DNA of 64,000 nucleotides from Tubulanus polymorphus (GCF_964204645.1 NC_134029.1:10876850-10940849), one strand, 5' to 3'. Positions 7,044-62,480 are shown, counted from the first letter of the stretch. The notes: generated by a model not told the origin, from the letters alone. Numbers and translations: made by a program.

Positions 7044-7067
7044 ATGCATAATTTTTTTGTTAAATAA

Positions 7068-7490: not shown

Positions 7491-7509
7491 TAATTTTTAT
7501 TCTAAATAA

Positions 7510-9088: not shown

Positions 9089-9104
9089 TTTTTTTATTAT
9101 GTAA

Positions 9105-10859: not shown

Positions 10860-10892
10860 AAAAATAAATAATTAATTTCTTTTGTTAAATAA

Positions 10893-12140: not shown

Positions 12141-12172
12141 AATTTTAACTTTAATAAAAAATCTTATATTAA

Positions 12173-13321: not shown

Positions 13322-13344
13322 TTTAAAATATGAATATAATACCC

Positions 13345-13890: not shown

Positions 13891-13946
13891 GGGGGAGGTA
13901 TATAATACATATCTAATACATATCTAATACATAGGTATACAAATAG

Positions 13947-15639: not shown

Positions 15640-15642
15640 ATT

Positions 15643-16068
15643 TTAATCCATTAATAATATTTTAGATTTATTTTCATTTGATTTATGATTTGACTTATTT
15701 TCGGGTATGATAGGTTTACTGTCTGTACACGGATAACTAAGTTTCCGATTGTCATTGGAATCATCTTTATCATCAGATTTGAATTTTGATTTATATATTA
15801 CACCGGATAATATAATAACTGTTACTAATCCAATTGTAATATATAATTTATAATTACTTCCAGCATTAGAAGAATTAGATGGATTATTATTTGAATCAAT
15901 ACCACCGTGTGGGTGCTGTACGGCACCATCAGATAATTTCTGTGATTCATTTATATCAGTTAATTTCTTTTTCTTAGCTTTTTTTAATTCTGAAGATCTT
16001 TTACCTAATTCTCTTGCCCATATAATTTGTTTCTCGGATCTAGGCTTCTTCTTAACGCTATCACTCAT
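15643..16068 (-). CDS. Basic protein with a single TM helix (141 aa)
   Basis: K-rich N-terminus; LYITIGLVTVIILSGVIY; TAAATG start. Confidence 0.75.
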   Translation of the reverse strand: MSDSVKKKPRSEKQIIWARELGKRSSELKKAKKKKLTDINESQKLSDGAVQHPHGGIDSNNNPSNSSNAGSNYKLYITIGLVTVIILSGVIYKSKFKSDDKDDSNDNRKLSYPCTDSKPIIPENKSNHKSNENKSKILLMD

Positions 16069-16641
16069 TTATTTTTGTTTTGATTCATTTTCTGTTTCGA
16101 TGTTTGGTTGTAGTACAGCGTCATCTGTTTCATTCTTACCTGATTTATATTCCATAGGTTTGATGTTCGAAAATGTTATGACGCCAGTAGAAATTAATGT
16201 CATAACCGATCCTAATTGAAATGAAGCATATCCAACCCATTTTTGTAATTCAGTCATAACTAAATAGTCATTTTTCAAATCATTATATAATTTATTTTCA
16301 TCATCAATTGGTATTAACTGGTTACATAATTTTGAATAACATTTGACAATACCATCTGAAATAGAATCATTTATTCTAGCTAATCGAGCTTCTTCATAAA
16401 TCTTAAAATATTTTATTACTTTATCGGGTTTCATAGCATCTAATTCTTGAAAAGTAATGATTCTATTTAAAAACTCATTAGTTTTTCCACCGGCAATCAA
16501 TAGTTCTATATGGTGCTTACAATATAAATAGTATTCATAATCTATAGAATTAGAAACAACTGTATCTTTATTATCACTAATACCTAAATCATCTAATGTC
16601 TTTTCAATATCAATATTATTCTTACTCGATTTCTTTGACAT
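16069..16641 (-). CDS. Hypothetical Polinton protein (190 aa) with a C-terminal hydrophobic segment
   Basis: TAAATG start; homologous 5' part (IEKTLDDLGI..YEYYLY) at 39470 in element B. Confidence 0.8.
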   Translation of the reverse strand: MSKKSSKNNIDIEKTLDDLGISDNKDTVVSNSIDYEYYLYCKHHIELLIAGGKTNEFLNRIITFQELDAMKPDKVIKYFKIYEEARLARINDSISDGIVKCYSKLCNQLIPIDDENKLYNDLKNDYLVMTELQKWVGYASFQLGSVMTLISTGVITFSNIKPMEYKSGKNETDDAVLQPNIETENESKQK

Positions 16642-17050
16642 TTATTTCAGAGAAATTTAATAAGAATAGTATTATAAGTATTCTTCAAATGATACTAGTA
16701 TCTCTTTAGGTTAATACTAAATTGACTAGGTTAGTTAAAGTTAAAGAATTTCTATTCAAATCTATTCAAAATCTATTCAATCTAATGTCAATTAGAATTA
16801 CCAAAAGAAAATATTGAAAATATGATAGAATTGACTAGCTAGTTGAAGTTATTGTTTTTTTATTATATTTTATTTAAATTAGGATTTAATATCTCACTAC
16901 TATTGTCTATCTATAGGAGCGGTAACTATAACTGTCCAGATAAGTCATTTCGGATCCTCGATATCAAATCCTCAACTGAAAATAAATTCAAAGAAACGAC
17001 TGGTGGAAATCTTATTTCATAAACAGATATATTTATTATGTAAATTTTAG

Positions 17051-21724: not shown

Positions 21725-24700
21725 TTAGATGCTGTCATTCAAGGCAATGTATACTAAGCTATGATCCGACCAATATGTATCAATGATTCCAGTTGTATTG
21801 ATACCCATAGTATCTATATTGGTAGAAATCAAATCTAGCTTACTATGCAGAATTGTTGTTGGCAATTTGATGAGTTGACGACAGTGGAATTGATCAAACT
21901 TAAACCTCTCTAGTGGCTGATTATACGCGGAAGAATTTTGAATTATTGATTTCATGTTACAATCTCCCAATGTAATAATTATGGATGCTAAATCCAAGCA
22001 TGTTAAGGTTTTTAGAGATTCTAGAAGTGTGTTGAATGAACATGTTGGAGAAACATACATAAAGACAATTTGCAAAGGCTGGTGATTGTGTGCTATGCAT
22101 AGATATGTGTATTCCAACAGGCGAGAACTAAACGATTTGGTCTCAAGCAGATGTAAAGAATTCCTGAAGTATGTGATCAGTTCATGTGCAGGAGTACTCT
22201 TGCAATCATTTCTCAAAGTGGTAAAATTCGCAAGATCATAGTCTGAAGAAATATTGTGAGATGTCAATCTAGATTCTGAAAATGCTAGTACATCAGCAGC
22301 ACAAATATTTGGGTTCTGATTAATGTCACAGAAATGTTTTTTGTAAGACCTGGCATTGTGATAGAGTCTTTCAAAGAAGTTGCTGGTAGGCTGTATATTG
22401 GTTTGTAACACAAACTTACTGAAGAATTCAGTCGTAAATAATTCAGGTGGTCAGTCACATCTTTAGCAGTAGTTATCTTGTCTTCATTCAGGTTCACAAC
22501 GTATAAGTTATCAAGATTTTTAACACGACTGAAGGCAACATAATGCGAGTGAGTTAGTACAGATTTAGGAGTACGAGGGTGTGCAAGCATATTGACAACA
22601 ATTGAGTTATAAGTTCCTCTCTGTGATTTGTGAATTGTGCGCCCAGAAGCAGGCAATAATGGAAATTGTAATCTTTGTAATGTAGACTGTCTTGGTGTCC
22701 AAGTATTAGGTATATCAGGCGTAAAGAAGCATCTGTATTTCTGTCTTTGAAGTCTGCCGATAGCACCATTATTACACACAGCATTGTTATATACAGCAGG
22801 GATTCAGGATTTCAGTAGGCAGGCCTGCAGAATCGGAGTATGTTTCGCATTTACTTACAGTTTGACAAACCTTTTCTTTTACTGACTGAGATACACCACT
22901 AAGTACAACATCGATACATCTTATGACTGCTTTTTAAGTTTTGACTAGGTTGAATACTGTGTCATTATGGGATGAAGCGCTAGCTTTCAAAGGAAAGAAA
23001 TGTGGAACAGATAAGGGGTAATTATCATATGTAACAAATATTTCTTTAGATTTCAAAGTCAATATATCGGACTTAGTAAATGTATTTGTTCTAATACGAT
23101 TCAGCAATAGAGCAAAAGACAAATCCTCCTGTTGACGCATAATTTGGTCTAATTCAAAGATTTTGAAGTTATCAATCCAAATATTACAGGCAAGTGGTCC
23201 ATACTGATCAGGAATACTGGTAAATATGTAACTGTCCATGACTGGTTTTAGTTGATAGAAGTCGCCAATGCATAGAACATGTAGACCACCAAACAGTTTC
23301 TTGTTTGACATTATTTCTTGAAGACCCATATTTATGATATTAAGCATACCGGAACCAACCATACAAATCTCATCAATAATGACTAGTTTTAAGTCAGGTA
23401 TTTTGACCTAATAGAGTTTAGTTCACTAGGTGACATTTTTCTGTACTCATAACCGCTGCTTGGTAGAATTTTGAGACCTGAATGAATGTTGGTTCCATGA
23501 ATCTAAAAAGCAGTCATGCCTGTAGGAGCAAGTAGTAATATCTTACAATCATCTGGCTTTTCACCTGGTGCAGAAGATAAAGACCTAACTAAGTATTGAT
23601 ACAAAGCTTTAATAACTTAAGACTTTCCAGTACCTGCAGAACCTGTACAAAATATATGCAGAGTGTCAAGTTCTCTACTGATAGTTTGTATTATGTGTGT
23701 AAATATTTCATTTTGTTTTAAATTGAGAGATATGGTGGTAATCTATTAGGCAGTAGAGAAATGGCAACATCAGACTTATGAACAGGTAAATGTAAGTCAT
23801 GTGATAAGTCATAGTAACGCTGGTTATCTGGACGATCAGGGTCAAAAAAGAGACTCTCTTTATCTATATCATTTTGGGAGATTTCTGGTAAGTCAACATT
23901 ATCATTCTCGATTTGTTGTTGCATTGCTTCAACATGTCAATAAGATCGTCATTGTGTGACTCATATTTTTCAATTACTGGTTTAATCATTGGAAGGTACT
24001 CTTTTAATCTAACTTGGTAAGAAATATGATCTGCAATCATTTCTTCTTTTTTCCTTGATATATATAAGAGCAAGCGTTCACGATAATAGTTTTCTGGATC
24101 AGAAGATTAGTTATAATTTAGAAATCGTATAACACGTGGGTTTTTTCTTAAGTAAAAAGATCTCGGAAAATGAGTAGTGTAGTCATCAGTGATAGAAGGA
24201 TCATCATCATGATTATCATCAAAATAAGAATCCTTTCTATTGAATTTTTTCACTTTCACCAGGGAGCGTAATCAGCTAAACAGTAATCTTCTAAAACACT
24301 TAGTCTGGTAGAGTACTGATGTATTATTCCATCTTGTTGAATATGGGTAGAAGTCTCACGCAAATTCTTTAAGTCAACAAGGCCTTTGAGCAAAAATGTC
24401 CGTTCATTAGGTGGTGATTTGTTGATGAAAATAACTTCACGAGAAGAACGGGTAATAGGCAGTTGAAGAGTTCAATAGACATCCTCTTGTGCACCGATTT
24501 CTGCGGCGTTAAGGTATTTGTTACCAATATGTTTGACAGAACTTTTCAAATCCATATTTCCATTTTTGGCTTCATTGCATGCAGATTCTAGCATGGAAGA
24601 CATTCCTTTCTGACCTTTACATTTATAATTAGCTATGTACACTGCCAATGCGTAAGCATCAACAACATACTGGATGTCATGATTGGCTTGCCAAATACCT

Positions 24701-26450
24701 GGAAGGTTTTTCATATATGGATTGATCCTAATTTCATCAGGATTTCGTTTAAGGAAAACTTTAGTGTTTGTTAGAGATGATCGGATCGTTCTTATGTACT
24801 TTTCTTCGGAGAGACTTAAATGACTATCGAGGAAATTCAGTAAACTTGATATTGAAATCAGTCTGTCAATTTAGAATATTCTGTACAGTTTTACACTGGT
24901 TGTTAAGTAAAACACGTTCAGCATCAGTTGTCTCTTCATCCAGTGGGGTGAGAATTCTAGTTCGTGACATTGGAGGCTGTGGGAATCCAAAGCGACAGAT
25001 TTTCTGTTTTCTTTTCTTTTTGCAGGTTTTAGAGTGTTTATGAATTTGATAAGAAAGAAACTGTTCGTCAACAGTCGAGACATTGGAAAACACAGATATT
25101 ATACTATCAATGAAGTCACATATTTCTTGTTCAGAATGTTCTCCATATATCAGAGGATTGGCTAACCAAACTGTCATATGTATGTGTGGACTGCCTCGTT
25201 GTTGAAATTCAACTCGATACAATGAATCTGTAATGTTTCCGATTGGATAACTAGGATTTTTTAATACATGTTTGATGAATTGTTGAACTCTGTGTTCAAA
25301 AAATCTTGCACAAGTAACTGGGTCACTACTAACCAATCGAGTGATAGTTTTCCAGTCTAAGTTATAAATATCTTCATCAGTATAATTTTTGCCATCAACT
25401 AATTGACCTAGACACCTAAGTAGGGGACACCATTTTGTATCAGCAGCTGATTGACTAATGAAGAGAGATGGAAAGCCTAGTTGTCGAATCATTGCGAAGA
25501 GCTCTTTTTTTCTTTACTCCAGATATGGTGGTCAGTTTCTTATTCATTTAAATATATAATAGCCTTCATCAAGTTTTACTATAGATTGTCGAATATTCTC
25601 ATAGAGGATTTCACCAGCCGTGTAAGTTTTACCCTTAGTCTTACATCTACGTATCGAGAGAGAAACGCGATCAATCACTTGCTTGAGATGAAGTTTTTTA
25701 AATTTGAAAAAAATGTTAGGAATGTTGGATGCCACTCTCCTATCAACAGATCTCAATTCATATTTGCAGATATCACTATAATGAACTGGTCGATGTCTGT
25801 CTTTATTTTCTGGTCTGGTCTGGCCACAAAAGATTGTTGGCCAAGAAAGGTATTCAGCATTTACATCTTGATATAGACTAATAGGTAGATGACCTTTACC
25901 AGGTGCATATTTGTAAACATAGGGGTCAACTTCATCTAATAATGTATCCATATTAGCAGGCTTCTCATATATGTCGTCTTCATGGAAGATTCAGAATCAG
26001 ATGGTACATATTCTTTTGTGCTATCAGAACTAATGTTATGAAAATTGTTCTGTATGTTATCATCTTTCAGATAGGGCTGGATATCAGGATTTGTTGATAA
26101 CAAATTAGCGTCAAATTTTGCTCCGCTCTCTTTGTACAAAAATGAATGATGGATAAGCCATTGTAATGCCTGAATGACTTTAAGGGGTCTGACATTTTCT
26201 GAGAATTCGATGCTGTTATATGATAATTTTCGTTTCAATCGGACTGACACAGTCTGTGTATCTCTCATTTTTCAAGGTAATGCACTAACAGTTGTATTGA
26301 CATCAACAGGGACATTGACAACGTTGCCTCTGATAAGTCTTTGTTGTGCCACAGGTAACTGCCGTATTTGCATGAACGGAATTCTGAGGGCTATCAACCT
26401 TTCTTCAAGCTGAGTCAAATACAATTCTTGAGGTTTCTCTAGAAACCCAT
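21725..26450 (-). mobile_element. Decayed Helentron/Helitron2: HUH Rep, PIF1 helicase and AP-endonuclease, many frameshifts and stops
   Basis: Rep DPVTCARFF, YRVEFQQRGSPHIH; helicase GSAGTGKS, GDFYQL, QIMRQ, QFPL..TIHKSQ, YVAFSRV; EEP domain SESRL, GDCN, YWSDH (21725..22411); ends not resolved. Confidence 0.9.
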
Positions 26451-35040: not shown

Positions 35041-37407
35041 TATAAATTATCGAATATATGTTTAGAATATGATACAGTAACTGATGAAAATATTTCAAGC
35101 ATAATTCAAACTCAATACAATCAACGATTTTCATTATTATATGATTGTATTGATAAATTTAAAACTGTAACTATTAATGCAAATGATGAAATAATTAATG
35201 AGAATATTAACTTCCCAAGAAGATCTATTAAAGGTATATTACTATTTTTCACCATGGCAACATATTCCAATGGTGCAATAAATGTTGATGATTATTATAA
35301 TCCTGAAATATCAAAGGTAGAAATAACTATTGAAGGTATGATTAATAAAATATTTTGCCAAGGAATGAGAATGATTGAACATCGGTGAAAAAGCTGAATC
35401 ACTGAAACGCTGAAACGCTGAAAAAAGAACGCTGAAATTTCTGGGAATTCACGAAAAACGCTGAAATCGTGCTAGGAACCGACAATACACATTTTGAACT
35501 TTTTTTCCGGAGCGGGCCGCTGCCGAGTCCTGAACCGTGCTTTAGTCTCTACCTTACTTAGTTATAGAGACATGCATAAAACAGTATATTGTGTGGAGTA
35601 TGAAAACCTATGAAACCCCATTCACAACCGTACAAGCCACTTTTAAACACTATGCTGAATATTCCAAGAATGTGGTTGACTTCGAGACGAAAAAAATCTT
35701 ATTTGAACATTTCAAATGTATATGAAATATGATTATGATTGCCACTTCTCTTTTGTCAACATGTCACGCATGACTATGGACGACTGTGGTATTCTTGGAG
35801 ACCGGAGGTAAGTTAAATTTAATAGCTAGCTATAATGATTATGCGGCTTTTGGACAAAAGGGATCTTACTTAATTTCTTTTTAATTCATCGTGCGCATGG
35901 AATGGATTTAACAATTGCGAATAATTTATTTGCTGTGGTGAGAAAATCATTAGGTTTTTAAAGAAATGACAAACCATCTGCTAGAAAAATGTATCGATTC
36001 TTATTTTTAGACTGTCTATAAATGGAGGAATCGTAGGCCAAGTTGCTTAGATGGACATACAGATACCGAGAAAATACTTTTTATAGCAGTGATTATATTT
36101 CACGCTATCAGATGCCACAAGTGAACTTCAACTGTGAAATTTGTAGCAGGATAGCTAAACGACACAATTTTAAAACATGAAATAAAACGAATGCTATTTC
36201 AGTAATAACTTGATTCAACCAGAGAAAAATAGGTCAACAGCTGATGTACAGTAGACCCCGCTTTACTTGTTTTTCCTGGGACCAAATTCGTAGTCTTTAA
36301 AATCTAAGGGATATTCCGAGGTAACCAAGGGGATTTCAATAGAATACGAAGCAATGGAACCAGAATTCAAGCCCAAGCTAAGCGAATCTGTGGCTTTAAC
36401 GCTTGATTCGGATAAAATGTAGAACTGATTTCTCTTGTGTACTCTTGTGGAATGTATAATGTATATTTCAAGCTGTTAATCAATATAGTTAAGATAAACG
36501 TTCAATTATTGGATCTTTCTTGTTGACGTTTAATTTTGAGAGTTTAGAGTTCCAGTTTATCCACAATGTGCAGTGCCTAGCCTTCATCTACACTAAAGCC
36601 AAGTCTGTGTATGGGAAAATGTTGTTCGACTCTTATAGGCCTGAAAAATCGAGGCATGAATGCAGATGGTAGTCTCAGCAAGTTGAGAAAGTAAAACAAG
36701 TTTTGACCTCTTCCGGGGACGACCCTTTAAGGCTCCTCCTTGTAGAAAATGTAGAAATATGAAACCCAATCGAAGCTATGCTAAGTACAATGACAGTTGA
36801 ACCTTTATTAACGAATTTCAATGACACCGAAAATAACGTTGGCTTGTACGGTTGTGATAAAGTTTTGATAGGTTTTCATACTCCACACATACTGTTTATG
36901 CATGTATCTACAACAAAAAATTAGGTAGAGACAAAAGCAAATGTTCAGGACTCGGCAGCGGTCCCGGCCCGGAAAAAAATTCAAAACGTGTATTGTCGGT
37001 TCCTAGCATGATTTCAGCGTTTTCCGGGAATTCCCAAAATTTTCAGTGTTTTTCGGGAATTCCCTGAAATTTCAGCGTTTTATTTTCAGCGTTTCAGTGT
37101 TTCAGCTTTTCCAGCGAAGTTCAGGAACCGTTGATCAATGGCCAGAAATTAGAAAACATTTATGAATGAAAAAGTAAAATCATCTGAAAATTGTAATATT
37201 AATCAAATTGATTATTATAACGGCAATAAATATGCACTATGGTTAGATTTTAGAACAACAGAGGATAATTCATTACATGGTTCTGGGAAAAAACTACAAA
37301 ATACAAAAGATGGAATACAATTGTTCATGAAAAAGAAAAAAGGAATCAAAAATTTCAAAATGCCAATTTATATTATAAATTCTCAATTCGATAGTATTCA
37401 ATATTAG
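35041..37407 (+). pseudogene. 3' part of the element B major capsid gene, interrupted by a MITE
   Basis: YKLSNICLEYDTV..FPRRSIKGIL..GMRMI / DQW..YALWLDFRTTEDNSLHGSG. Confidence 0.85.
35376..37130. mobile_element. ~1.75-kb foldback element with ~270-bp TIRs
   Basis: 35376-35640 mirrored by ~36838-37130 (GCTGAAA repeats, CTAGGAACCGACAATACAC); TTGA on both flanks. Confidence 0.8.
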
Positions 37408-37437
37408 AAGTATAAAGTTAAAATTAACGATATATAA

Positions 37438-38544
37438 ATGGGGGATAAAAAAAACTCGAAATACTAAAGAACAATATCTAAGAAATTTATATTATAATCC
37501 TGAGAGTTCGGTTGCTTATTCTTCTGTAAAAAACATATGGAGTCAAGTAAAACAAGATAAATTAGATAAGATAATCCCACAAAATTTAGTTAAATATAAA
37601 GATACAAATGAATTTATGTTAGAACAACCAACATATACAAAACATAAAAAAATTGTTAGAAAATATAAAACTCGTAAAACTATGGTAAGTTATGTAGATC
37701 AGCAGTGGCAAGGAGATTTAATTGATATGAAAAATGTTAAGAAAGATAATGATGATTATTGGTGGATATTAAATATAATTGATATTTTTAGTCGTTATGT
37801 ATGGAGCTTCCCACTTTACAGAAAAGATGCTGTACAAACATCAAATGTTTTAAGAAAATTTCTTTCGGATGATAAACTAAAACCAGAAAAAATACAATTT
37901 GATGTTGAAAAAAATTTGATAATTCACTTGTTCATGAACTCTTAGATAATCATAATATTAAATATTTTTCAACAAAATCGGATAAAAAGCAGCAGTTGTT
38001 GAACGATTTAATAGAATATTAAGAACAAGAATGTGGAAATATTTTACAGCAAAAAATACTTTTAAATGGATTGATGTTTTACTAAAATTGATAAAAGGTT
38101 ATAATAATTCTTATCATTCTTCTATTGGAATGAAAACTATTGATGCTAGAAAACCTGAAAATGCTGAAATTGTTTGGAATAATTTATATGGAGCATTTCT
38201 TCTAGATGATTTTGGTGAACCTAAATTTGAAGTTGGTCAAAATGTTAGAATTTCTAAGTATAAAAAGATATTTGACAAAGGATACGATCGTAATATTACT
38301 AGAGAAACATATAAAATAAAAAAGGTAATAACAACAAAACCATATGTCTATAAATTAGAAGATTTGGATGATGAAGAAGTTGATGGGTATTTTTAACTAC
38401 TGAAAATCTAGAACAAGAATATAAAATTGAAAAGTATTAAAAACAAAAACTGTTAATAGAAAAAAATATTCTTTAGTAAAATGGGTTGGATGGCCAGATA
38501 AATTCAATGAACTGATATTATCGAGTAAAATTAAAAATATATAA
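37438..38544 (+). pseudogene. Element B rve integrase-chromodomain, frameshifted
   Basis: WQGDLID, IQFD, VERFNR, YSLVKWVGWPDKFNE. Confidence 0.88.
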
Positions 38545-39153
38545 ATGAATAAGGAATTATTTTTATTTGAGCCTCATAATATGTTAATTTCTGGTGTAAC
38601 AAATTGTGGAAAAACTTATTTTATATTAAATTTATTAGAAATTATTTATAAAAACTATTTTGATAACATAGTATTATTTTGTCCAACGTATGAATTTAAT
38701 CAAACTTATGATAGAAATATAACTAGAAATAATAAATTTATTGTATTAAATCCTAAAACAGTTAAAGAAAATTTAGATAATTGCATTAAAATAGCAATTG
38801 ATATTTATAAAGGATCAAATACATTATTCATTATAGATGATTGTGCAAATTTACATGATTCAAAAATTAAAGAGAGTGAATTATGTTATTTAGCTTTCTC
38901 TGGAAGACATTTTGGGATAACAACGTGGGTTTTAAATCAAAAATATAATTCAATTGTTAAAGATTTTAGAGAAAACATTAGATTTTTAGTTTTATTCTAC
39001 AATAAAGATAGAAAATCAATCAAAAATGCGCTTGAGGAAAATGATATTATTCCACATGATTTACACAATGAATATATGGATAAATTGAAAAATAATAAAA
39101 GATCAAAATTACTATTTCGATTACAACACCCATTTAAATATGAATTTATTTAA
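38545..39153 (+). CDS. Element B packaging ATPase (ORF intact)
   Basis: GVTNCGKT, FIIDD; closely similar to 13947..14558. Confidence 0.9.
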   Translation: MNKELFLFEPHNMLISGVTNCGKTYFILNLLEIIYKNYFDNIVLFCPTYEFNQTYDRNITRNNKFIVLNPKTVKENLDNCIKIAIDIYKGSNTLFIIDDCANLHDSKIKESELCYLAFSGRHFGITTWVLNQKYNSIVKDFRENIRFLVLFYNKDRKSIKNALEENDIIPHDLHNEYMDKLKNNKRSKLLFRLQHPFKYEFI

Positions 39154-50363: not shown

Positions 50364-52914
50364 TTAACTGGCCAAAATAACACATGTGAAAATTCAATGC
50401 TATTTGGATTGGAAGAACTTTATATTGCCAAGATCTGACGCTTGGTTTGGTAGTTAAAAGCTTTCAAAGACAAAACCCCTCAAAATCTTGATTATATAAA
50501 ATGTGTTGACGCGGTTTTGACTTCCATCATGACGTCATAACATTGAACGAGGTGGATCAGCTGGTGCGCGTTATTTCACTAACAAAATGGCGGCACGATT
50601 GAATAGGTGGACATTCATCAATACTGATATTCAAGGCGTATGATATAACGATTTATTGTGTCGATGTGATCAATTATTCTAGTTTTGATATCCCGTGCAT
50701 AAGGTAAAGTTGCATCTAGATATCTGAAGAAAATGTGGTTTTAAAATGCAGAAATTTACTTCCGTGTTCGCCACACGGCTGATTTACTGATAGCATCGAA
50801 TTTTTAGAGATGAGTCATTAACGTTCGCATTAGCAATCCGTTTTTAGAGCCTGATTATTTGTATTAATTTATAGGCTAGAGTACGCGCGCCACGGTGTAG
50901 GTTCAGCGTAACAACGATTTGTCTGAGTAAAGATGTAAGCTAATTAAAGCAATCCTATCGTGAAATTATTAAAAATCATGTCAATCGATAAACTTTGTTT
51001 TGCCAGTAACCGCCACTGGCCTCAAATTTGAAGAACTTGGGAGCTTCTGTCCTGATTGGTCCGTATGATAAAAATGAAAAACCTCCGATGAAACCCAGGC
51101 TCTCACCAAGTTTGAACCATATCTTATCGGGTCACTCATAGTTTTAGTTGTTTTAAGTCATTCAAGGGATGTATTAAAATTATGATCATTTGTTCAGACA
51201 AAAGGCCCATAATCAATTTTTCGAAGATTTCATTCTCAGCAAAAGTCAGTTATTAAAAGTTCTCACTAACCAAAATTGAGTCCTTTTTAGCTCACTTGGG
51301 ACTTTAGTCCCTGCGGGCTATTGCGTTCACTTTTCGTCCGTAGACGGAATCCAGCTATTTTGGGAAGTTTTGAAGAGGCTTCAATGTAATGTCTTGATAT
51401 TTGTGTTACACATGTATATACCCTAGCCCAAAAACTGGCCCTGTCAGAATCACGATGGCTGACTGGCAGCCATTGTTGTTCGCCAAAATCAGCAATTTTT
51501 ACACATTTTTGAACTTTTAGAGGGAAATTTTGAAGACGCTTCGATCAATTACCTGGATCTTTCGTACATATTTGAATCCCCAAGGGCCCATCAGCATAAG
51601 AAATATTGGGTCGATCGGACTCAAGATGGCCGTCCTATGACCATTTTAGTGCCCAAAAATGTCAATTTAGCCCGAATTCTGAGTCCTGTAGCTTCCAACT
51701 GGTTTGCCATTTCTCAATGCAATTTGTGATGGGTATTCTTTGGAAAGAGAAATTTTATACCTGAGACATGTATTTTTGACCAGCCAATTATGGCGCAATT
51801 GGCAGCCATCTCGGTGTCATCAGTACTCATTCGAAGGTGGGAAAAAGTTTTCCATATTATATTGATACCTAATGCAGCTATCATTATCAGTTATGTCTGA
51901 CCCCCCCTAGTTCAGCACATCACCATCTATTAGACATTTCCAATGATGTCATTCGTCTAGGATTCGACCAATATTCGCCTCAGAAGAAGAATACATAAGT
52001 CAAGAATTCACCCTACTCCAGAATGAAGAATGTCAGAGCTTCGCCTGGTATTCACCTCATACATATTTCCTGTAGTCAGACATTCACCTTTCGAAAAACC
52101 GTGAACAAAAAATAGTTTTTGACCAAGGTCCGAAACTAAGCATTTTCAAGATACTAAATTTTCTACAAATTATCAGTAAACTTTATTTAACTAACAAGGC
52201 CTAAGCCTATTGCAATGCAATATACATTTGTTAAAATAATTGGTGTTATTTGGTTTCCATTTTATAAAAAATAAAGTGCTCAAATAGTTGAGCTTCAAAA
52301 ATAACCAAGTTATTACTATTAATGCAAAATGTGTATGGAAACATTAATAATGTATTTATGTTCCTGGGAGTCATTTTCCTACTTCATCTTAAGTACTTGA
52401 AATGATTATTGTTCAATTCAACAAATCGGAATGACTTCGGAATCCCTCTCATCGAAAATATTAAATATTGAAATAACAACATGGTGACCATGTTGTACTT
52501 ATTTCAATATTTGACCAGGTCAGTCTTGGAGGTAGGTATTATTGACACATGCCCCATGTGGAATTACCCGACCGTCATATTGATATTACAAAAAATCAGT
52601 AATTAAGTATTACCTCAAGTGGCCACTGAGGTAGGTAAAAAAGAACTACTTATATAAACCTCGGAAAAATAACAACAAAACTTAATAAACATCAGAAGAA
52701 TTACAACAAAGTTAAAATACTGTTACCCAGGGGCCAGTTTCGTGTAGATGGAATAAGTACCTGACTTTTAAATTGATCATAATTCAGATATCATTAGGGC
52801 AATCAGAGATCGACCTGTTCATATTGTACCTGGAGTTCGGTCTTGATGGTCTAACCATAAAATGTTCCATATAATTAATTAACCAGGAGTGTATTTATGT
52901 ATATGAAACTGGCT

Positions 52915-53170
52915 CCAGGTATATACAAATTTCCAAAGAGCCATGTAAAACGCTCTACATTATTAATTAAAACAAAATGTCGGTGCCACTCATTTCTATC
53001 ATCGATCTTCTAGATCAGTATCTGATCAGTGGCTGCTAATACCAGGTATATACAAATTTCCAAAGAGCCATGTTAAACACTCTACATTATTAATTAAAAC
53101 AAAATGTCGGTGCCACTCTTTTCTGTCATTGATCTTCTAGATCAGTATCTGATCACTGGATCAGTGGCTG
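52915..53170. repeat. ~127-bp tandem duplication
   Basis: CCAGGTATATACAAATTTCCAAAGAGCCATG..GATCAGTGGCTG twice. Confidence 0.9.
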
Positions 53171-53242
53171 ACCTACAAAAAAAGGACACAATTTGATGTA
53201 ATACATGTACATAGAACAATACTTGTTAAAGTATGTATTCAA

Positions 53243-53386
53243 TAGACAATTTCAGAAAGTCGCAATCCTTGCGGCAGGTGCACGTACATGGTGGATAATC
53301 ACTATGAATCGAATTCTTTTGGCTTTGTGATTATCCACCATGTACGTGCACCTGCCGCAAGGATTGCGACTTTCTGAAATTGTCTA
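53243..53386. repeat. Perfect 60-bp-arm inverted repeat (mini-MITE, TAG..CTA ends)
   Basis: 53243-53302 is the exact reverse complement of 53327-53386; 24-nt loop. Confidence 0.92.
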
Positions 53387-53457
53387 ATAGTCCCTATATC
53401 AAATCCTCCTCTGTAGATTTTTGTGTCAGCTTGATGCAACTCATAACACAGAAAATG

Positions 53458-56400
53458 TCAATGAAGAACCTTTTTTATGTAATCAACACTGGCATTTTCC
53501 TCCTCCAGCCTTTTTTTCTGTCTTGTGGCAGCAGCTTTTTGGCCACCCATAACTCTTGCTTTATGAACTGCAGCAAGGTGATTGTAGTAATAGTTCACAC
53601 GATCAATAGAAAGACAAAGCTGCGTCGAAAGAACTTTCACTTCAGATTCTGTAAGCGGAGGAACCATGCCAGCTTTAGCCATTTCAGAACCTTTTTTTAC
53701 TTCTAACTTCTTCTTGGAGAATTCTTCAGCAATAAGTTTCGAAGGTAGACAATTTCCAGGGTCAAGGATTCGTGACTTCGAAAGTTCCAGAAGATCAAGA
53801 TATGATTTAAAGTGCCCATCACAATTATCACATTCACATTTTCTCTCTGGATCAGCGTATGGCCATGGAATAAAAGTGAGAAGTGGGCCATTTGGGAACC
53901 AGACCATTTCTTCATTCCTCCTGTTCCGTTCTTGGCAAATTGGGTGTGGACATCCATCTTTGAAACAACACACTAATCCGTAGACATACTTAACTGTATC
54001 AATCTGATGATTAGATATCACACTCAATATCATGTCAAAATATTGCAACTGTTGGAATTTTTCTGGTTCTGCTGAATATTGGTACTTTATATCACTTCGT
54101 TTCTTCTCATTGGCTTTCAGATAAGACAGCAACAATTCTCTCCTATCTACATAATCTGGTCTTTCACCATGTTTGAATAGTTTAATTGTGTTATTGTTAA
54201 ACTTTGTTCCATTTACTCTGGATAGGTAAACATCCACAGCAGCATTTAGATTATTTGCAACCAATGTTTCATCTATAACACCAGCATTTTTATTAGGACC
54301 CAATAGGGTCGATGGGATAAACAAGTTTGCGTGAGCTCGCTTGAGCTGCCCATTTAAATGTTCGACAATATTTAAGAAGCTCCCGCCAGCAAACCGTGTC
54401 GTTACGAAGGTGGCTAGTTTCCTTTGCTCATAGTGCCATTCTCCCCACATGAATTTCTGTTCTACATGGTCGGGATTTTCATCCCCCGCCCCATCTACTC
54501 TGATGGCATCAATTTCTTTCACATGACCATCTTCTCGATAGAAAACATGTTTCAGTTGTGGAACATTTGACAACATACGTAGATCCGCTGCATGTTGACT
54601 AGGTGTCTTAGGAACTAATTTGGTTGGTTTCACTATCCCAGCATAGTCCTCTATAGTAGTTGGACTACCGGTGAAATGATACGAAGTGACCTGTAGTATT
54701 GACTGTTCAGAATTTGTGAAGTCGGTACGCGTGGCCAGGTCCTCTTCACCTCGCACCATAAGCGATTTAAAATGATTTGATGTTGCTAGCGTATTTAATC
54801 GGAAGCCAGCAGCATCATCTCTGTTAATTAGAAGAATGTTCTTGTTGTCAGTTGAGTGTAATTTATCAAGACCTTTATACAAGGCCGACGACCAATGGTC
54901 ATCTACATTAATTTTGATGTCAAAGCCCTTCCTCGCACGTTTAGACACAATGTTTGCAACACCACGGTACCTTGAACTTGATTTTCTCCGTTTGTTAGGT
55001 GGAACACATAATTCAAATACTGTGCCATAACTGATTTTTTTTCCAATTCTTTTTGACAGTTCATCTCGCAACCTTTCCATAGTCATTTTTTGGCCGACCT
55101 TTTTGCGCTCCCATGTCAAACTAGACGAGGACCGCCACTTATCGGCCCCCACACCCGCATTTCTCACAATGTCCTCCATGACTTTCCCAATGTCTGGATG
55201 GCTCTGTAGTAAAGTTTTAGTAGATTTAGTGACTTTTCGTTGTAATAATCGTTCCTCTGCCATTTGCTTAGCAATTAATACCTTCTTTTGTCGTTGTAAA
55301 TGCTGTCTCTTTTCTTTAATTAACTGAATAAACTTAGGATCTGTAACAGATTTTAAATTCACTAGTCTCTCAGCAGTATCACAATCATCATCGTCATCAC
55401 TATCAATCTCCAATGGTTCAGTGTCATCAGGAGTATTTTCACATGGCAGAAGATTACTCAATTCGTCTTCATCAATCTCTTCCTCATCTAAATCATCTGC
55501 TTCATTGTCAACATAATGATCATACAACCCCAGCTTTTCTAGCATAGCTTTATCCTTCGATTGCACCAGATCTGTATATACACTATGAATTACTTGTATC
55601 CGTGATAGAGCTTCCTCTACATCATCACGTAATTTCCTATAGTTAGATCCATAAGCTGCCTTACACTTTTTACCAGATAGACAATCTGTTGCAGCAAATG
55701 TGACCAGTCGTTTGTCCTTCTCAGTAGAACACAACGATTTCAGCAACTTTAGACGATCTTTGCTAATATAATTGTAACCAAACTCTGATTCAGAGAAAAG
55801 TCCAAACTTGACACCTATATTAAAAGCTGAACCATAATCGACACCACTCAATTTCTGTGAAATATACAGCTGAGTTCCACCACACCGTAGTGTTCCTTTC
55901 AGGTTTCTACCCATTAACACGGCAACAACAGGCATTTGGAAAACTTTTCTTAAGACATTGGGCTTACAATACTTGTGTGATGCAGGGAAACAAGAATCAT
56001 GTATCTGTCGAAGAGAGACTGGTTCATTCTCCAAGACATATCTGGCTATCGAAGCATCAAGCTGACATGAACAGTTATCTGTATCAGTATGACGGCAGTT
56101 CTCTTGAATGATTTTAAAATCGGCAAGAGTGAGGTTTGAATAATGAGACACTTTTACATGGTCATTCACTTTCAAGAAGAAAACCTTTTTACTATCAACT
56201 ACCATTTTCTCGGAAATAAACAACCTATAAGTATCTGAAAAATACCTGTTATTATCTGGTACTGATTGAATACTATCTTTAATACTACTCGTAACATCAC
56301 TGATCTCATTACCAACATCTGAACTCATTTCAGTATTATCTTGTTCATCATTAGAGGGGATGACAGTGTCTGAATTGTGAGATACAGATTCATTCACTTC

Positions 56401-56925
56401 TTCAGTATAAATACTCTTATCTTCATCGGTGGGCTTAGTAACAACATTAGTTGATGGAACAGTCTTATATGAACTAATTGTGGCATTAACTTGTTCATCA
56501 TCAGAAAGGATGACAGTGTCTGCATCGGAAATCACTTCTTCTGTAGCACTACTAAATGTATCGGTTGAGTAAGTAACAGTAGCTGATGGAGAAGTCTTTA
56601 TACTTTGTGATGCATGATAACGAGAGTCCCTTCCAGATTTATTTTCCTTTCGATTTAAATCTTCTTTTTCAATTTTGAGCCCTTTTTTTTCAGCATACAG
56701 ATTATCTAATTGGGTTTGAAGTGCATCAGCCTCTTCCGTTAAATTCAATAAAGTTTTGGTGCGTATCTGAATGAGCAGAATGCCGGTTTTAGATTCGATT
56801 GACAATAACCTATCATTTATATCAGCGATCCTTTGTTGACGACACTTTTTCGACAGCTTCGGTTTTGGACCAGAATCAGCGTTGGCATGTCTGCGTTTTC
56901 TCTTAAAAGGGTACACTTTATTAAC
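53458..56925 (-). CDS. Zator-like DDE transposase, exon 5 (catalytic core, Cys clusters, C-terminal homeodomain-like helices)
   Basis: INRDDAAG, QHAADL, VKEIDAIRVDGAGDENP, GGSFLNIVEHLNG correspond to Zator QDD / VDGGPDENP / SAFNRVE; acceptor ttttcag|GTT at 56925. Confidence 0.85.
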   Translation of the reverse strand, partial: VNKVYPFKRKRRHANADSGPKPKLSKKCRQQRIADINDRLLSIESKTGILLIQIRTKTLLNLTEEADALQTQLDNLYAEKKGLKIEKEDLNRKENKSGRDSRYHASQSIKTSPSATVTYSTDTFSSATEEVISDADTVILSDDEQVNATISSYKTVPSTNVVTKPTDEDKSIYTEEVNESVSHNSDTVIPSNDEQDNTEMSSDVGNEISDVTSSIKDSIQSVPDNNRYFSDTYRLFISEKMVVDSKKVFFLKVNDHVKVSHYSNLTLADFKIIQENCRHTDTDNCSCQLDASIARYVLENEPVSLRQIHDSCFPASHKYCKPNVLRKVFQMPVVAVLMGRNLKGTLRCGGTQLYISQKLSGVDYGSAFNIGVKFGLFSESEFGYNYISKDRLKLLKSLCSTEKDKRLVTFAATDCLSGKKCKAAYGSNYRKLRDDVEEALSRIQVIHSVYTDLVQSKDKAMLEKLGLYDHYVDNEADDLDEEEIDEDELSNLLPCENTPDDTEPLEIDSDDDDDCDTAERLVNLKSVTDPKFIQLIKEKRQHLQRQKKVLIAKQMAEERLLQRKVTKSTKTLLQSHPDIGKVMEDIVRNAGVGADKWRSSSSLTWERKKVGQKMTMERLRDELSKRIGKKISYGTVFELCVPPNKRRKSSSRYRGVANIVSKRARKGFDIKINVDDHWSSALYKGLDKLHSTDNKNILLINRDDAAGFRLNTLATSNHFKSLMVRGEEDLATRTDFTNSEQSILQVTSYHFTGSPTTIEDYAGIVKPTKLVPKTPSQHAADLRMLSNVPQLKHVFYREDGHVKEIDAIRVDGAGDENPDHVEQKFMWGEWHYEQRKLATFVTTRFAGGSFLNIVEHLNGQLKRAHANLFIPSTLLGPNKNAGVIDETLVANNLNAAVDVYLSRVNGTKFNNNTIKLFKHGERPDYVDRRELLLSYLKANEKKRSDIKYQYSAEPEKFQQLQYFDMILSVISNHQIDTVKYVYGLVCCFKDGCPHPICQERNRRNEEMVWFPNGPLLTFIPWPYADPERKCECDNCDGHFKSYLDLLELSKSRILDPGNCLPSKLIAEEFSKKKLEVKKGSEMAKAGMVPPLTESEVKVLSTQLCLSIDRVNYYYNHLAAVHKARVMGGQKAAATRQKKRLEEENASVDYIKKVLH

Positions 56926-57437
56926 CTGAAAAGAAATATAACAAATCTCTATGGATAAAGCTCTGGTGGGAAAATTTAAGTATTTTTGGGGAATTAGCAA
57001 TTGTCCTGTAAATTCATGTAAACAGGATTCCTCTTTGTACTACCATACACCCACCATAAAGATTTCATGAAATTATGTCCATCAGTGTTATGGCATAAAA
57101 TACATAAAAGCCAACACAAACTGTCAGCCACCTCCCAGATTTAATATACACCTACCATCAAAAAATTCAATGAAATTACCTCAATTGGTTTTTATAAAGT
57201 TATGTCATAAGATAATAAAACCTAAAATAATCATGGCCACCTGTCGGCCATCTTGAACTGGGAACTTCAGTCACAGCAGAGCTAATCAGTAAACAAACAA
57301 ATATGTTGTAGAAATCCATTCGTATGTAAAATGTATTGGCAGATAGCGAGGGTGGCGGATAATGTAGCGTAGACTTTCAAAAATACCTGTAATCAAAAAC
57401 TTTTTAAAATCATTGGTTTTCAAATTTATACATGTAC

Positions 57438-57655
57438 CTCAAGTCTTGCATTTTTCAGAAGCGTTCCTCTATTGCCTTTATTTAACAGCTCCGGTGTTTT
57501 TAAAACAAGCTTATAGCATGTTTTATTTATTTCCTTGTTGTAATTAGCATTTTTCCCATGCTCTGCCAGAATCTTTGTCTGTCGCTGAATATGAGCTTTA
57601 TGTTTTTCTGTATCCATTGTGCCAAAATCAACTAAAGTTTTCTGAACTGTAATTT
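57438..57655 (-). CDS. Transposase exon 4
   Basis: ttcacag|AA..CTTGAG|gtacat; 218 nt, phase 1 to 0, open. Confidence 0.8.
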
Positions 57656-57998
57656 CTGTGAAAAAATTACACAACTTCATTAGACTATAAAAGAAACAAT
57701 GACAGTCCTCTATATCTGAGCTTTTAAAATGATAGTAAAGTAATATAAAAAATATCAAGTGAAATCCAATATTACTGGGGTAGCAATATTGCCAGGATAC
57801 GGCAAGTACGGTAAGTTATGTTTAAGTAAGAGAGTCACACTTGAGTTCAATGCAGACACAAGTTTGAACCCAGCCTTGAAAGGCTATCACAGTGGGACAT
57901 CTATCACTATTGTAGTTCTTAAAAGCAGAAAATATATTTAGGAAAGGGTTAACTATGTCTTGCAGCTGAAGGGTGAAGTCATAAGAAATAATAGTTAC

Positions 57999-58169
57999 CT
58001 CTGACAGCTGCAATATCAGGTTCACTCTCGATCGATTCTATTTCGCTGACATCGGGACTAGCTTTCAAATACACAACAGTGAAGTTTTCAAGAAAGTCAT
58101 AGTATTCAGCAGTTATTTCTGTGTGGTCTTCTGTGTACAGGACACCTTCACAGTTCAATTTTTCACAAA
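57999..58169 (-). CDS. Transposase exon 3 (second half of CIDE-N domain)
   Basis: ttttag|TTTGTGAA..AGAG|gtaact; 171 nt, phase 1 to 1; CEKLNCEGVLYTEDHTEITAEYYDFLENFTVVYLK. Confidence 0.8.
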
Positions 58170-58868
58170 CTAAAATACAAATACCATTTTACAAACTAGG
58201 AGTGCTTCGTGCACCTAGGCAAATTAATTTCGTCATACAGGGCTTGAAATTAGCAGCATCTTGATATCCAAAGGATAGGCCTACTAGGTCACTTGTAACT
58301 TTACCCTGATGACACACAGTGGTGTGTCGAAACGTCGGAAATAAAATTGTTAAAAAAACTTGAGGGTTTTCTACATGATAGGCCTACTAGGCCTAGATCT
58401 TTGATGTCTATGTATCCAAATGGGTTTCCAAAATTTTCAGTAAACCTCTGAACTTGGGGTAGGCCTACCATGATTTGGATATCGGATACGAGATTTTGGT
58501 TGAGTAGTATCCAATGTGGATCGATGATGTATGAAATTTCAAAAATTTCAAGCCCTACCAGTACGTAGTATCAAAGAGTGGTTTTAACTTATATCCTACG
58601 TAGTATCATTTTATAGGAAGATAGACATTTGATTTATATTCATTTTTGTGAACTTATGTCCCAATTGCAGCATTACCATAAAAACAATATTGTACAAAAG
58701 CTTTACAATTAATTAAATAAAGATTGATTTCTATTCATTTGAAAAGAAATACCCTTGCTGCTAAAGAAATGCTAAGAATTTATAAACTAATCGTGAGATC
58801 AGGAAAGGTGAATTTTACCTTTATAGGCCTCATTGACCTTACACGAATCAAGACTTAAATAGACTCAC

Positions 58869-58954
58869 CTTTCTGTAATAAATCCTCATACGATGTTGCT
58901 ATTATTGGAACTTTTTCTTGGGTTCCTTTGCCCACGAGTAATTTAAAGGGTCGA
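58869..58954 (-). CDS. Transposase exon 2 (first half of CIDE-N domain)
   Basis: ttttcag|TCGACCC..GAAAG|gtgagt; 86 nt, phase 2 to 1; RPFKLLVGKGTQEKVPIIATSYEDLLQK. Confidence 0.8.
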
Positions 58955-59673
58955 CTGAAAATAAAAAATTATAATAGGCCTATTAATTTTATCAAGAAGA
59001 GCAAGGGCACGCTTCGTAAAGGATAGGTTACTGGTTAGCCTGATCACTTCTAATGAAGTTTCACAATAATGGGAACTAGGTCACATATCGCGAAAGAAGT
59101 AAAACATTTTAAAATTTGACAGATCATGATGAGGTGGTGCTTTCTGTAGGCAGTGTCCCTTGGATTGAAAAGACACTGATAGACAACAGTTTGAGTTTTC
59201 TTCACGGCATCCACATTAATTGTAATGAATAGCAGAATACGTGATTGTGAGTGAAGAAGGTCTCACTGACTTCTTTCCATACATACACTACAAAATACAA
59301 GTTGTATATTGTAGGCCTAGAGTACAAGTCCAAGACCAAGAGCAGCCTGGCGCCTAGGATTAGGAGGGGGTGAATTTTTAGTAATAATATAACGGCAATG
59401 GAATAAATAATAATGGTGTTCAGATGACAGGCTTTGTTGTGGAAGCATGGAATAGCCATATAAGCAGATTAGGCCTGGCCCTACAGAATTGAATTTCAAT
59501 CAATTTTTTGTGAGCGTTTTTACTCAGACTAACCTAGGCTGAAATTTTACGTTCTAGCTAGATACAACTCCAACAAGCCAAGGAAGTGATTGATGGCATA
59601 GTTAGTATAGATTGTCATATAGATACTAGATAGGGGCCTGCTGAGACGATAAGATAAACTGATTGATAAATAC

Positions 59674-59690
59674 CTTGGCATTTTTTCCAT
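59674..59690 (-). CDS. Transposase exon 1 (MEKMP)
   Basis: ATGGAAAAAATGCCAAG|gtattt; phase 2 matches exon 2; ~585 bp inside the TIR. Confidence 0.6.
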
Positions 59691-60788
59691 CCGTTTTTCT
59701 TCGTTCGCCAATCGATAAACGAAAATTCAAATTCTTTATTTACAATTCAATTCAATTCAATATTTATTAACATTTGCTACATATAAAATATCGCGTAACA
59801 CACATGAATAAAGTTTGCATAGACAATGAAAAAAAAAAATTTACTCACACCAATTACAAGCGAAGTTACCTGACTCGAGTAAGAAAATAGACTCGTTGGG
59901 GCAGGGAACCAGTCTATTTAGAATACAAACGCGGTGATTAGGTTCGAATCCCATGCAGGCTATATTTATCTGCAGAACACAACAGACGCGTCGTAATATA
60001 TCTTTTTTCGGTTCGGGTTATTTAACTTCCTTGCGCATAATTAAAAATCCGGTACCGGTACGTCAGGTTTTCACCTCATTCCATGAAACTATTCGCCAGA
60101 ACATCATTATATAGCCCCCAACTGTTCGTCAGTCATTCACCCAATATAAAAAAAATGATAGCCAGACAATCGACATCAGCGTTTTGCTGCCACGTCAGGC
60201 ATACGCCAAAATTCGACGTCGATGTTGCATCGACCGCTGAACTAGGGGGGGTCAGACATAACATTGATAGCTGCATAAGCATAATTTGTTACCACAATCA
60301 ATTGCAAAGTTGTAGCTCATGACATTGTCTATGATTTTGGTGAGTTTTAAAGACATTTGTTTTTCTATGTGGTCACCAGGGGGTGTTGAATAGTAGAATA
60401 ACTTTGTATTTCTTATTAGATTTGGTACCTACGCATATTTTGTTACCATGATCAATTGCAAAGTTGTAGTTCATGACATGTTCTCTGATTGTGGTGAGTT
60501 TCATTGGGTTTTGGGTTTTGCATATTGTCACCAGGGGGCGTTGAATAGTAGAAAAACTTAGTATTTCCATATTAAATCGGTAACGAGGCATATTTTGTTA
60601 TCACAATCAATAAAAAAATCATAGCTGCTGAGATATTCTATGATTGTGGTGAGTTTCAAGGTCATTGGTTTTTGAATATGGTCACCAGGGGGCATGGAAT
60701 ATTGAAATTGTTAGATTGTTGATCATTTGAAACCACTTCCCAAGTGGAAATGATGCCGCATTGGCAAAATATCCACTTCCATATTTAA

Positions 60789-61562: not shown

Positions 61563-62480
61563 AGTCAATTTAGTTTCGATTTTCTTCGTCCTTTTCGGGA
61601 TATCTCGCTTAATTTTCGGTGTGCATACCTCGAAGAGGTCTTAATCGAATCAGTAGGGTTGTGCAATCCAGATAAATCATCGTTTTTATATCCATTTTGC
61701 GCTGTTTTGAAGGATTGATGAATATTTTCGAAAAATTGAGCTTTAGGCCATATAGAAAAAATTACCGGTACTTGATTCTCATCAGAAGTTGTGAAAAAAA
61801 TCATCGAGGAGGGAGGCTCAATGATATATGAAGACTAGCAAGACCTCTATTAGAGGTCTTGCTAGTCTTCATAGCACGGGTCAAAACAAAACAAATCTTA
61901 TTTGCCACTTCTAATTTCGCAAACAATGAACGTTACTTTGAACGTTATGTGTGCCAGAGCTAGCTTTCAATTATCAATAAACTTCATAAGTGTTTGCATG
62001 TTCTGGCAGCTAATAGATGACTTTTGTATAGGCCTATAAAATGTTGCAAGTGTGATTTGTTATCCCAGGCGGAAGTTTTATGTTTTATATATAAAATATG
62101 AAAAAACTCCAGGCAGCCGCTAAACTCTGTATGGGCACTGATACGAATCAAGTAATTTATTTTATATGGCCTTAAATCGGTGGAAACGACCGCCATTTTG
62201 TTCGTGTTTGTTTGTTTCTTTATGCAAATGAGCCGTTGCACGCATGCGCAATGAGGCAGGGATGCTTCAATTATATCATTGGGGAGGGAGGAGCTTCTTG
62301 TTGCATAAAGGAATAAACAAACACGAACAAAATGGCGGTCGTTCTCATCGTTATATGAAAATGAAAATGACGATTTATGTGGACTGCGCAACCCTACTGA
62401 GAGACCTATTTGAGGTATGCACAGCGAAAATGAAGCGAAATATCCCAAAAAGATTGAGGACAATCGAAAATAAATAGACT
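61563..62480. mobile_element. Kolobok-type MITE with ~140-bp TIRs
   Basis: TTAA|AGTCAATTTAGTTTCGATT..AATCGAAAATAAATAGACT|TTAG. Confidence 0.7.

Follow-up and report, generated by a model that had tools for sequence, protein, structure and literature searches.

Zator transposons have terminal inverted repeats (TIRs) of about 25-35 bp with 5'-GG...CC-3' termini, and their transposases combine a DD43E triad spacing with a motif order resembling that of the catalytic core discussed here. In bacteria, IS1 (InsA/InsAB'), the IS3-family element IS911 (OrfA/OrfAB) and many IS630 members encode -1 frameshifted transposases, and OrfA and InsA damp the transposases of IS911 and IS1. Paired products also occur in eukaryotes, as with TnpA and TnpD of maize En/Spm and the 66-kDa repressor and 87-kDa transposase of the Drosophila P element; to our knowledge, no eukaryotic DNA transposon uses programmed -1 ribosomal frameshifting. 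The element described here is an 8.4-kb, TIR-bounded transposon at positions 51873-60275 of a 64,000-nt stretch of the genome of the ribbon worm (nemertean) Tubulanus polymorphus (NC_134029.1:10876850-10940849), the whole of which is referred to as the window. Published accounts place Zator in the ITm group (PMC7386202, PMC8533490), group Zator and TP36 transposases together in a tree (PMC7386202) and give Zator no Pfam match (PMC5751038).

On balance, this locus is best read as a low-copy, Zator-related transposon whose gene is spliced to yield short CIDE-N proteins without the catalytic core, together with a predicted, rarer, intron-retaining full-length CIDE-N-DD43E transposase. With similar, somewhat better than even confidence, it can be placed in a widespread animal cut-and-paste lineage (TGCA ends, TWA target, DD43E) in which programmed -1 ribosomal frameshifting would produce a short polymer-forming regulator (CIDE-N or SAM, followed by NCD2 and a coiled coil) and a long transposase. 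The nemertean and sea-urchin branch would have exchanged the frameshift for alternative splicing from a donor at the codon concerned, and CIDE-N and NCD2 may have been traded with host genes (DFF/CIDE and NAB).

A sequence-only reading of this DNA had proposed a five-exon gene, and the model is confirmed at 59690-59674, 58954-58869, 58169-57999, 57655-57438 and 56925-53458 (all GT-AG, 3960 nt, 1319 aa, one terminal stop). A single contig of the dataset X4 (652 nt, depth 29.5) joins 59674 to 58954, 58869 to 58169, 57999 to 57655 and 57438 to 56925 exactly, so that all four proposed junctions are spliced; the joints are absent from the X1 DNA contig (6910 nt, spanning all introns) and from the X5 raw whole-genome shotgun (WGS) reads. 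X1 and X5 are DNA, and X4, which is read as RNA because its contig is spliced, is the only RNA evidence. RefSeq annotates only a 212-aa and a 400-aa form (P0081 and P0082), both with the same short tail. The features of the gene and its products are as follows.

59674-59731, minus strand: exon 1 (ATG at 59690; the X4 contig extends to 59731)
58869-58954, minus strand: exon 2, N-terminal half of CIDE-N (X4 junctions; Pfam match of P0081)
57999-58169, minus strand: exon 3, C-terminal half of CIDE-N (X4 junctions; Pfam match of P0081)
57438-57655, minus strand: exon 4, PIP-box-like QKTLVDF and most of the NAB NCD2-like domain (X4 junctions; family profile)
53458-56925, minus strand: exon 5, end of the NCD2-like domain, coiled coil, acidic linker and entire transposase core (X4 junction; profile)
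56623-56850, minus strand: coiled coil, about aa 190-265 (relatives-only profile)
56809-56810, minus strand: alternative donor 1, giving the 212-aa isoform (P0081 reproduced; X4 loose end)
56236-56246, minus strand: alternative donor 2, giving the 400-aa isoform, with the last exonic base at 56246 immediately 5' of an in-frame U-run (reproduces the database protein)
54178-54840, minus strand: RNase-H-fold catalytic domain, D867/D868-D975-E1019, DD43E (65-row alignment; structural matches)
53812-54009, minus strand: Cys/His cluster H1137, C1151, C1156, H1158, C1161, C1196, C1199 and H1202 (92-100% conserved in 65 rows)
53521-53757, minus strand: predicted C-terminal homeodomain-like helical bundle, about aa 1221-1299 (VIA Z 7.3 to the Meis2 homeobox over 55 aligned residues, a middling score)
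53142-53172, minus strand: coding part of exon 6, the alternative last exon, with acceptor at 53172 and ending SATDPVIRY-stop (P0081 and P0082 reproduced)
52182-52187, minus strand: AATAAA poly(A) signal common to all isoforms (the 3' X4 contig ends at 52174)

Splicing of donors 56810 and 56246 to acceptor 53172 reproduces P0081 and P0082, respectively, letter for letter. This acceptor lies downstream of the transposase stop, and the alternative introns take out 3.6 or 3.1 kb and with it the catalytic core in full. Both short isoforms contain CIDE-N and the NAB NCD2-like domain, and the coiled coil is present in the 400-aa form only. In X4, the 212-aa joint is supported by a loose end at 56808 that matches exon 6 (depth 9.1), and the 400-aa joint by a contig (depth 34.5) that follows the window as far as 56244 and has 26 letters beyond it. 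Depth is 55.8 on the shared 3' untranslated region (UTR), 5-20 on pieces within the alternative intron, broadly falling toward the 5' side, and zero in most bins of introns 1-4; as contig depths from one run, these values are a weak measure for comparing isoforms. The gene mainly yields short isoforms without the DDE core. The pieces internal to the alternative intron fit a rarer retained-intron mRNA, and the 1319-aa protein is predicted as one possible product, which requires intron retention. The earlier proposal of a spliced 1319-aa transposase thus stands as to the joining of exons 1-5, while in the forms that are annotated and better covered exon 5 is cut short. An assembly error was considered as the source of the in-frame junction between the N-terminal part (ORF1, from open reading frame) and the core, and was rejected, as the X1 contig has no indel there.

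The N-terminal domain is CIDE-N, as had been proposed: residues 7-67 of P0081, a protein identical over the first 203 aa, match PF02017 with 30.6 bits (cut-off 23.5; E 3.5e-7). When the exons are scanned singly against Pfam and PDB, no CIDE-N match appears, because an intron splits the domain. Among 48,161 chains, the five closest to the CIDE-N model are Drep4, Drep3, CAD/ICAD, CIDE-A and FSP27 (Z 7.9-9.0), and the top Foldseek matches are to FSP27 (E 0.002). Residue listing shows both charged faces of filament-forming CIDE domains, with basic residues R7, K10, K15 and K20 in exon 2 and an acidic patch of E48, D49, E52, E56 and D59 in exon 3. CIDE domains are described in PMC8647176 as assembling head-to-tail through oppositely charged faces and forming filaments. 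Given these faces and a SAM domain (E 2.6e-6) in the same slot of one relative, L009, the suggestion that the protein may oligomerise through CIDE-N appears likely.

Beyond CIDE-N, a profile made exclusively from 18 relatives recovers residues 114-265 of the window protein (E 1.8e-20). The second ORF1 domain of the family matches NAB NCD2 (PF04905) in 16 of 22 rows (best E 2.5e-12), and the family ORF1-domain profile matches PDB entry 2yuf (NCD2) at E 4.5e-8; the NCD2 profile is matched in its C-terminal half only, and exon 4 of the window element matches only via the family profile. PIP-box-like QxxLxxF/Y motifs occur in the nemertean protein (exon 4, aa 96-103) and in sea-urchin ORF1 proteins (P0100 at aa 220, P0102 at aa 164), and KIxxFF/FL occurs in three other ORF1 proteins, for a total of six among the nine proteins examined. 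It is possible, from the motif, that these bind PCNA.

In the core, 64-65 of 65 rows retain D867/D868, D975 and E1019, and the last spacing is 43 residues in 62 of the 65. The ten best VIA rows for a model of aa 690-1305 (predicted local distance difference test, pLDDT, 86) are Mos1, Metnase and Sleeping Beauty (Z 7.5-9.0); against 3hot, Z is 8.9 with a root-mean-square deviation of 3.8 over 191 aligned residues, and integrases come next at Z about 7. Foldseek E-values for the same model are not significant, an ESM Atlas feature search gives no usable match (structure rows fall below threshold), and the catalytic domain has no match in Pfam, NCBIfam, PDB sequences, plasmids (tblastn) or viral sequences. 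As modelled, the core has a mariner-type (Mos1-like) RNase-H fold of the DD43E type. The Cys/His cluster at 53812-54009 is probably a zinc site, judging by its conserved residues.

The ends of the element and its non-coding repeats are listed here.

51870-51872, no strand: left target-site duplication TAA (empty-site contigs have a single TAA)
51873-51916, plus strand: left TIR, beginning TGCAGC, 4 nt longer than the right TIR in the window copy
60236-60275, minus strand: right TIR, 40 bp, beginning TGCAGCTATCAAT (terminal-repeat comparison)
60276-60278, no strand: right target-site duplication TAA (empty-site contigs have a single TAA)
53243-53386, no strand: perfect 60-bp hairpin with a 24-nt loop, separating the transposase stop from the exon-6 acceptor (z -17.9)
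52915-53159, no strand: 127-bp tandem duplication in the 3' UTR, overlapping the start of exon 6 (repeat scan)

The two TIRs are 88.6% identical over 44 columns, and their inner 27 bp are perfect. The element sits in a very high-copy repeat (51350-51870 and 60279-60701; contig depth 1e5-1e6), the right-hand part of which is built of 155-bp units. Contigs of this flanking repeat that lack the insertion have a single TAA (loose ends at 51872 and 60276), and the TAA duplication is therefore real, in agreement with the TIRs and duplication first proposed. Three more TIR flanks, each starting with TWA (8, 6 and 3 reads), are found in X5, which comes from another sample. Two RefSeq loci on separate T. 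polymorphus contigs, LOC141910267 and LOC141906012, encode proteins identical to the window product over 203 and 391 aa; one of the two may be the window locus itself. X5 depth at the TIR is less than twice that of the element interior, so the family is a low-copy one, as far as read flanks and two RefSeq loci allow copies to be counted. The element is likely to have been mobile recently. Domestication, which the sequence-only reading had also dismissed, is ruled out by the TIRs, the target-site duplication and the other insertion flanks. An Rfam scan of the hairpin at 53243-53386 gives miRNA-family matches below threshold only. In another family locus, L081, a long near-perfect 163-bp hairpin (5706-6055) lies 3' of the transposase ORF, with a 24-nt loop as in the window hairpin, and it is possible that both hairpins are splice regulators or small-RNA sources.

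Eighty homologues of the core were found at 36-57% identity; unlike the window element, many of them have a PHD finger at the C-terminus. In addition, 82 related loci were fetched for a survey. The NCD2/coiled-coil part lies upstream of the core in 30 of the 82, most of the remaining loci being too short, and CIDE-N is present in eight, seven by Pfam (E 6e-5 to 3e-16) and L025 by our own profile only. A phase-1 donor position within CIDE-N (exon 2) is common to the window element and five relatives. Sea-urchin proteins combine CIDE-N with the same second domain as the window ORF1: the short models P0100 and P0103 consist of CIDE-N, the NCD2-like domain and the coiled coil, and P0104 (1316 aa, S. 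purpuratus cluster) joins CIDE-N (E 2.2e-9) to a transposase 43-54% identical over the core. The P0104 model lacks part of the catalytic domain, which is present in the near-identical P0002. The short urchin models diverge from P0104, at the level of protein models, at the residue aligned with nemertean donor 56246. The CIDE-N-transposase fusion, of which no described example had been known to the sequence-only reading, is thus present but not unique; it is a family trait rather than a one-off.

Complete TIR-bounded elements were recovered at three of 16 loci scanned (L014, L022 and L028), and all begin with TGCA. L022 and L028, both with CIDE-N, have TTA/TTA and TAA/TAA duplications, and L014 has a TAA/TTA mismatch. 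The relatives' TIRs are about 45-60 bp and family elements span 6.7-8.4 kb. In a tree of 56 catalytic domains, from which rows with fewer than 230 aligned residues were left out, P0001, P0003 and the urchin rows form a group with the window element (100/100); the distribution of CIDE-N on this tree needs four changes, at least three of them forced by well-supported branches. Two family members, L081 and L082, lie in contigs of archaeal and bacterial metagenome-assembled genomes; they are probably host-animal contamination, since the two-ORF layout of L081 equals that of animal loci. Other N-terminal exons were also observed. A short and conserved motif of an upstream exon, Q-x-T-I-x-I/V-x-N ... 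I/T-G, occurs in L030 (498-671), L014 (1355-1576), L015 (1230-1427), L025 and L009; by eye, the L030 example resembles the RHIM amyloid motif, and it has no Pfam match. In L021, the exon in the CIDE-N slot (3942-4334) looks beta-grasp-like (PB1/ubiquitin-like) by eye and likewise has no Pfam match.

In all 28 loci with both parts, ORF1 and the core ORF are separate; relative to ORF1, the core ORF lies in frame -1 at 23 loci, +1 at four and 0 at one. From 44 loci with the core N-terminal domain, 32 have a start and upstream DNA, and 24 of these are distinct. An in-phase X_XXY_YYZ heptamer occurs in 22 of the 24; the two remaining phases give five and four, and control windows 61 of 418. Three of the 22 are incidental picks, and GGA, known from a viral site, was allowed as XXX after the data had been seen. 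The aligned U-run is in phase in 22 of the 24 loci, and 21 have one of four slippery site types: G_GAU_UUU (eight), U_UUU_UUA (seven), A_AAU_UUU (four) and G_GGU_UUU (two). Downstream hairpins rank in the top 5% of local windows in 14 of 24 loci, mostly 6-9 nt on, and have varied sequences and loops with a similar spacer. Seven of eight database proteins that consist of ORF1 only end within two residues of a Phe. The relatives thus have the sequence hallmarks of a programmed -1 frameshift: a -1 overlap (23/28), a heptamer (21/24) and a structure (14/24). The window junction, which is homologous to the relatives' slippery site, is in frame (Arg-Tyr-Phe-Ser), has no hairpin (z +1.0; 76% of control windows fold as well) and carries a splice donor there.

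Each of the two routes seen in this family would supply a short product of ORF1 alone and a long one joining ORF1 to the core. Going by the sequence features above, relatives in other marine animals would make the long form by -1 ribosomal frameshifting, and the window lineage would have an in-frame junction and a splice donor in its place, with the long form arising from intron retention, possibly aided by the 60-bp hairpin before the exon-6 acceptor. CIDE-N would serve as a self-assembly module through which short and long products co-assemble head-to-tail, and via the coiled coil, and an excess of short protein may govern how active the transposase is, damping being the likeliest effect, as with OrfA and InsA. 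The ratio of short to long protein would then be under selection.

Several observations weigh against this model. No X4 contig bridges donor 56246 into the core, and X4 depth is absent at 56038-56243; the RNA evidence is one run (X4) whose type is not on record, and the 1319-aa mRNA is a prediction only, because no X4 contig reads through 56246. Among the relatives, five of the 28 two-part loci fall outside the -1 frame, and slippery types drop to 13 of 24 once the post hoc GGA type is excluded. The 14 of 24 hairpins were scored with the U-run having the best hairpin selected per locus, six of seven U_UUU_UUA sites have z above -2 and are thus mostly without a strong hairpin, and RNAalifold on an ungapped alignment finds no consensus structure at the junction hairpins. 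A second in-frame fusion, P0052, lies outside the clade of the window element. The structure model behind the CIDE-N fold matches has low confidence (mean pLDDT 61.5). Several relatives, the complete element L014 among them, yield no CIDE-N match, and the domain is therefore dispensable in the family. No result tells repression by the short form from a cofactor role.

The cofactor role would make the short CIDE-N/NCD2/coiled-coil protein a required partner, like TnpA of En/Spm, that binds the ends and scaffolds the transpososome instead of damping it. Retention of ORF1 (the NCD2-like domain and coiled coil) 5' of the core in 30 of 82 loci, and of a short product by two differing mechanisms, would suit such a role, as would the scaffolding of a nuclease by CIDE filaments in DFF40, as given in PMC8647176. 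However, the core itself is predicted to contain DNA-binding helices, together with a homeodomain-like fold at its C-terminus, and we consider a cofactor unlikely. The relatives' U-run could also be a 3' splice acceptor, with the whole family alternatively spliced and no ribosomal frameshift. Many sites do read UUUUUAG or UUUUCAG; of 22, 10 have a phase-1 AG no more than 6 nt away, and the window element itself splices at this place. This reading fits worse because the phase of the AG varies (phase 1 in 10, phase 2 in seven and none in five of 22), whereas that of the U-run is fixed in 22 of 24, and because a matching in-phase donor plus AG is found in only six of 18 loci; the three bases 5' of the U-run are also XXX-like, and a GC stem begins at a fixed spacer. 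It is quite improbable.

Slightly less credible still is a coupling of the transposase to the host ICAD/CAD caspase switch, raised in the sequence-only reading, or a buffering of apoptotic DNA fragmentation. The CIDE-N homology is true, and cross-binding is plausible in that CIDE-CIDE contacts are charge-based, according to PMC8647176. Nothing positive was found for such a coupling: the slot holds SAM in L009 and no detectable CIDE-N in L014 and others, and no DxxD-G/S/A site is present in the N-terminal 400 aa of the window protein. The presence of SAM in place of CIDE-N favours self-assembly over such a coupling. It is most improbable, finally, that the CIDE-N exons are passive cargo and that the core is made as a protein of its own from a start inside the gene. 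X4 has no read-through at 56246, and database core proteins do start at internal Met codons, but those starts are products of ORF callers. In the window, ORF1 and the core form one open frame, in a junction that the X1 contig reproduces, and CIDE-N, whose intron position is shared, is found on either side of the transposase tree.

If this is correct, translational recoding would be added to eukaryotic cut-and-paste transposons, together with a natural swap of a frameshift for a splice site at one position, which would therefore imply strong selection on the short-to-long protein ratio. In the literature covered, which excludes most subscription journals and Repbase, no CIDE-N transposase, transposon NCD2 or -1 frameshifting eukaryotic cut-and-paste element is described. 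CIDE-N, known from apoptosis and lipid-droplet proteins, and the NCD2 of NAB are here placed inside mobile elements, and transposon CIDE-N may account for "uncharacterized CIDE-N proteins" in invertebrate annotations. For Hydra, PMC7642931 reports an excess of CIDE-N beside transposase domains (10 and 7 versus 1-3); it may be that such transposons are the cause. Because the window copy is intact, each step is amenable to testing in cell culture.

Other mobile sequences occur elsewhere in the window. A low-GC (21-29%), Polinton/Maverick-like block of long ORFs spans 1242-17000, with an A32-type ATPase (13950-14558, E 1e-11), an rve integrase with a chromodomain (14554-15642), a weak capsid-N match (10893-11693) and an endonuclease VII. 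A second Polinton-like fragment at 37379-39153 contains an rve integrase and an A32 ATPase. A Helitron helicase-like fragment (24869-25513, minus strand, E 1.6e-23) and a LINE-type endonuclease fragment (21728-22450, minus strand) are also present, and a perfect 23-bp palindrome lies outside the element at 61827-61873.

Compared with Zator, to which the sequence-only reading had likened the element, the DD43E spacing (62 of 65 rows) and the ITm-type fold are shared, and the likeness fails at the termini, where the window element and all three complete relatives have TGCA rather than GG. The element is therefore called Zator-related, not canonical Zator, with membership set by features rather than by a reference Zator/TP36 tree. 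The 3-bp TWA duplication (TAA/TAA with an empty site in the window) is as in Zator-1 of Branchiostoma, whose TIRs are 33 bp in PMC12905397, against 40 bp in the window and about 45-60 bp in relatives. Unlike Zator, the window family has an extra ORF1 (CIDE-N or SAM, NCD2-like domain, coiled coil), a length of 6.7-8.4 kb, two products by frameshift or splicing and, in many relatives, a PHD finger.

In its division of labour, the family resembles IS1 and IS911. There, a short N-terminal protein that multimerises through a coiled coil accompanies a long transposase, and the latter arises by -1 frameshifting at a slippery heptamer with a hairpin; both signals are seen in the relatives, for which the same route is predicted. 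The family differs in being eukaryotic and intron-containing, with a TWA target and an oligomerisation module from animal signalling proteins, and the window copy splices. As in En/Spm and the P element, alternative splicing of one transcript would provide both a plentiful non-catalytic protein and a scarce transposase. The arrangement is the reverse of that in the P element, since splicing removes the catalytic ORF and retention would give the enzyme, and the superfamilies, En/Spm included, are unrelated. With the host CIDE-N proteins (DFF40/CAD, DFF45/ICAD, CIDE-A/B/C and Drep1-4) the window protein shares the sequence profile, beta-grasp fold and charged faces, but it lacks the DFF40 nuclease, DFF-C and CIDE-C, and has NCD2-like, coiled-coil and DDE domains fused instead. 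In NAB1 and NAB2, an oligomerisation domain, the SAM-like NCD1, precedes NCD2, as CIDE-N precedes the NCD2-like domain in the window ORF1.

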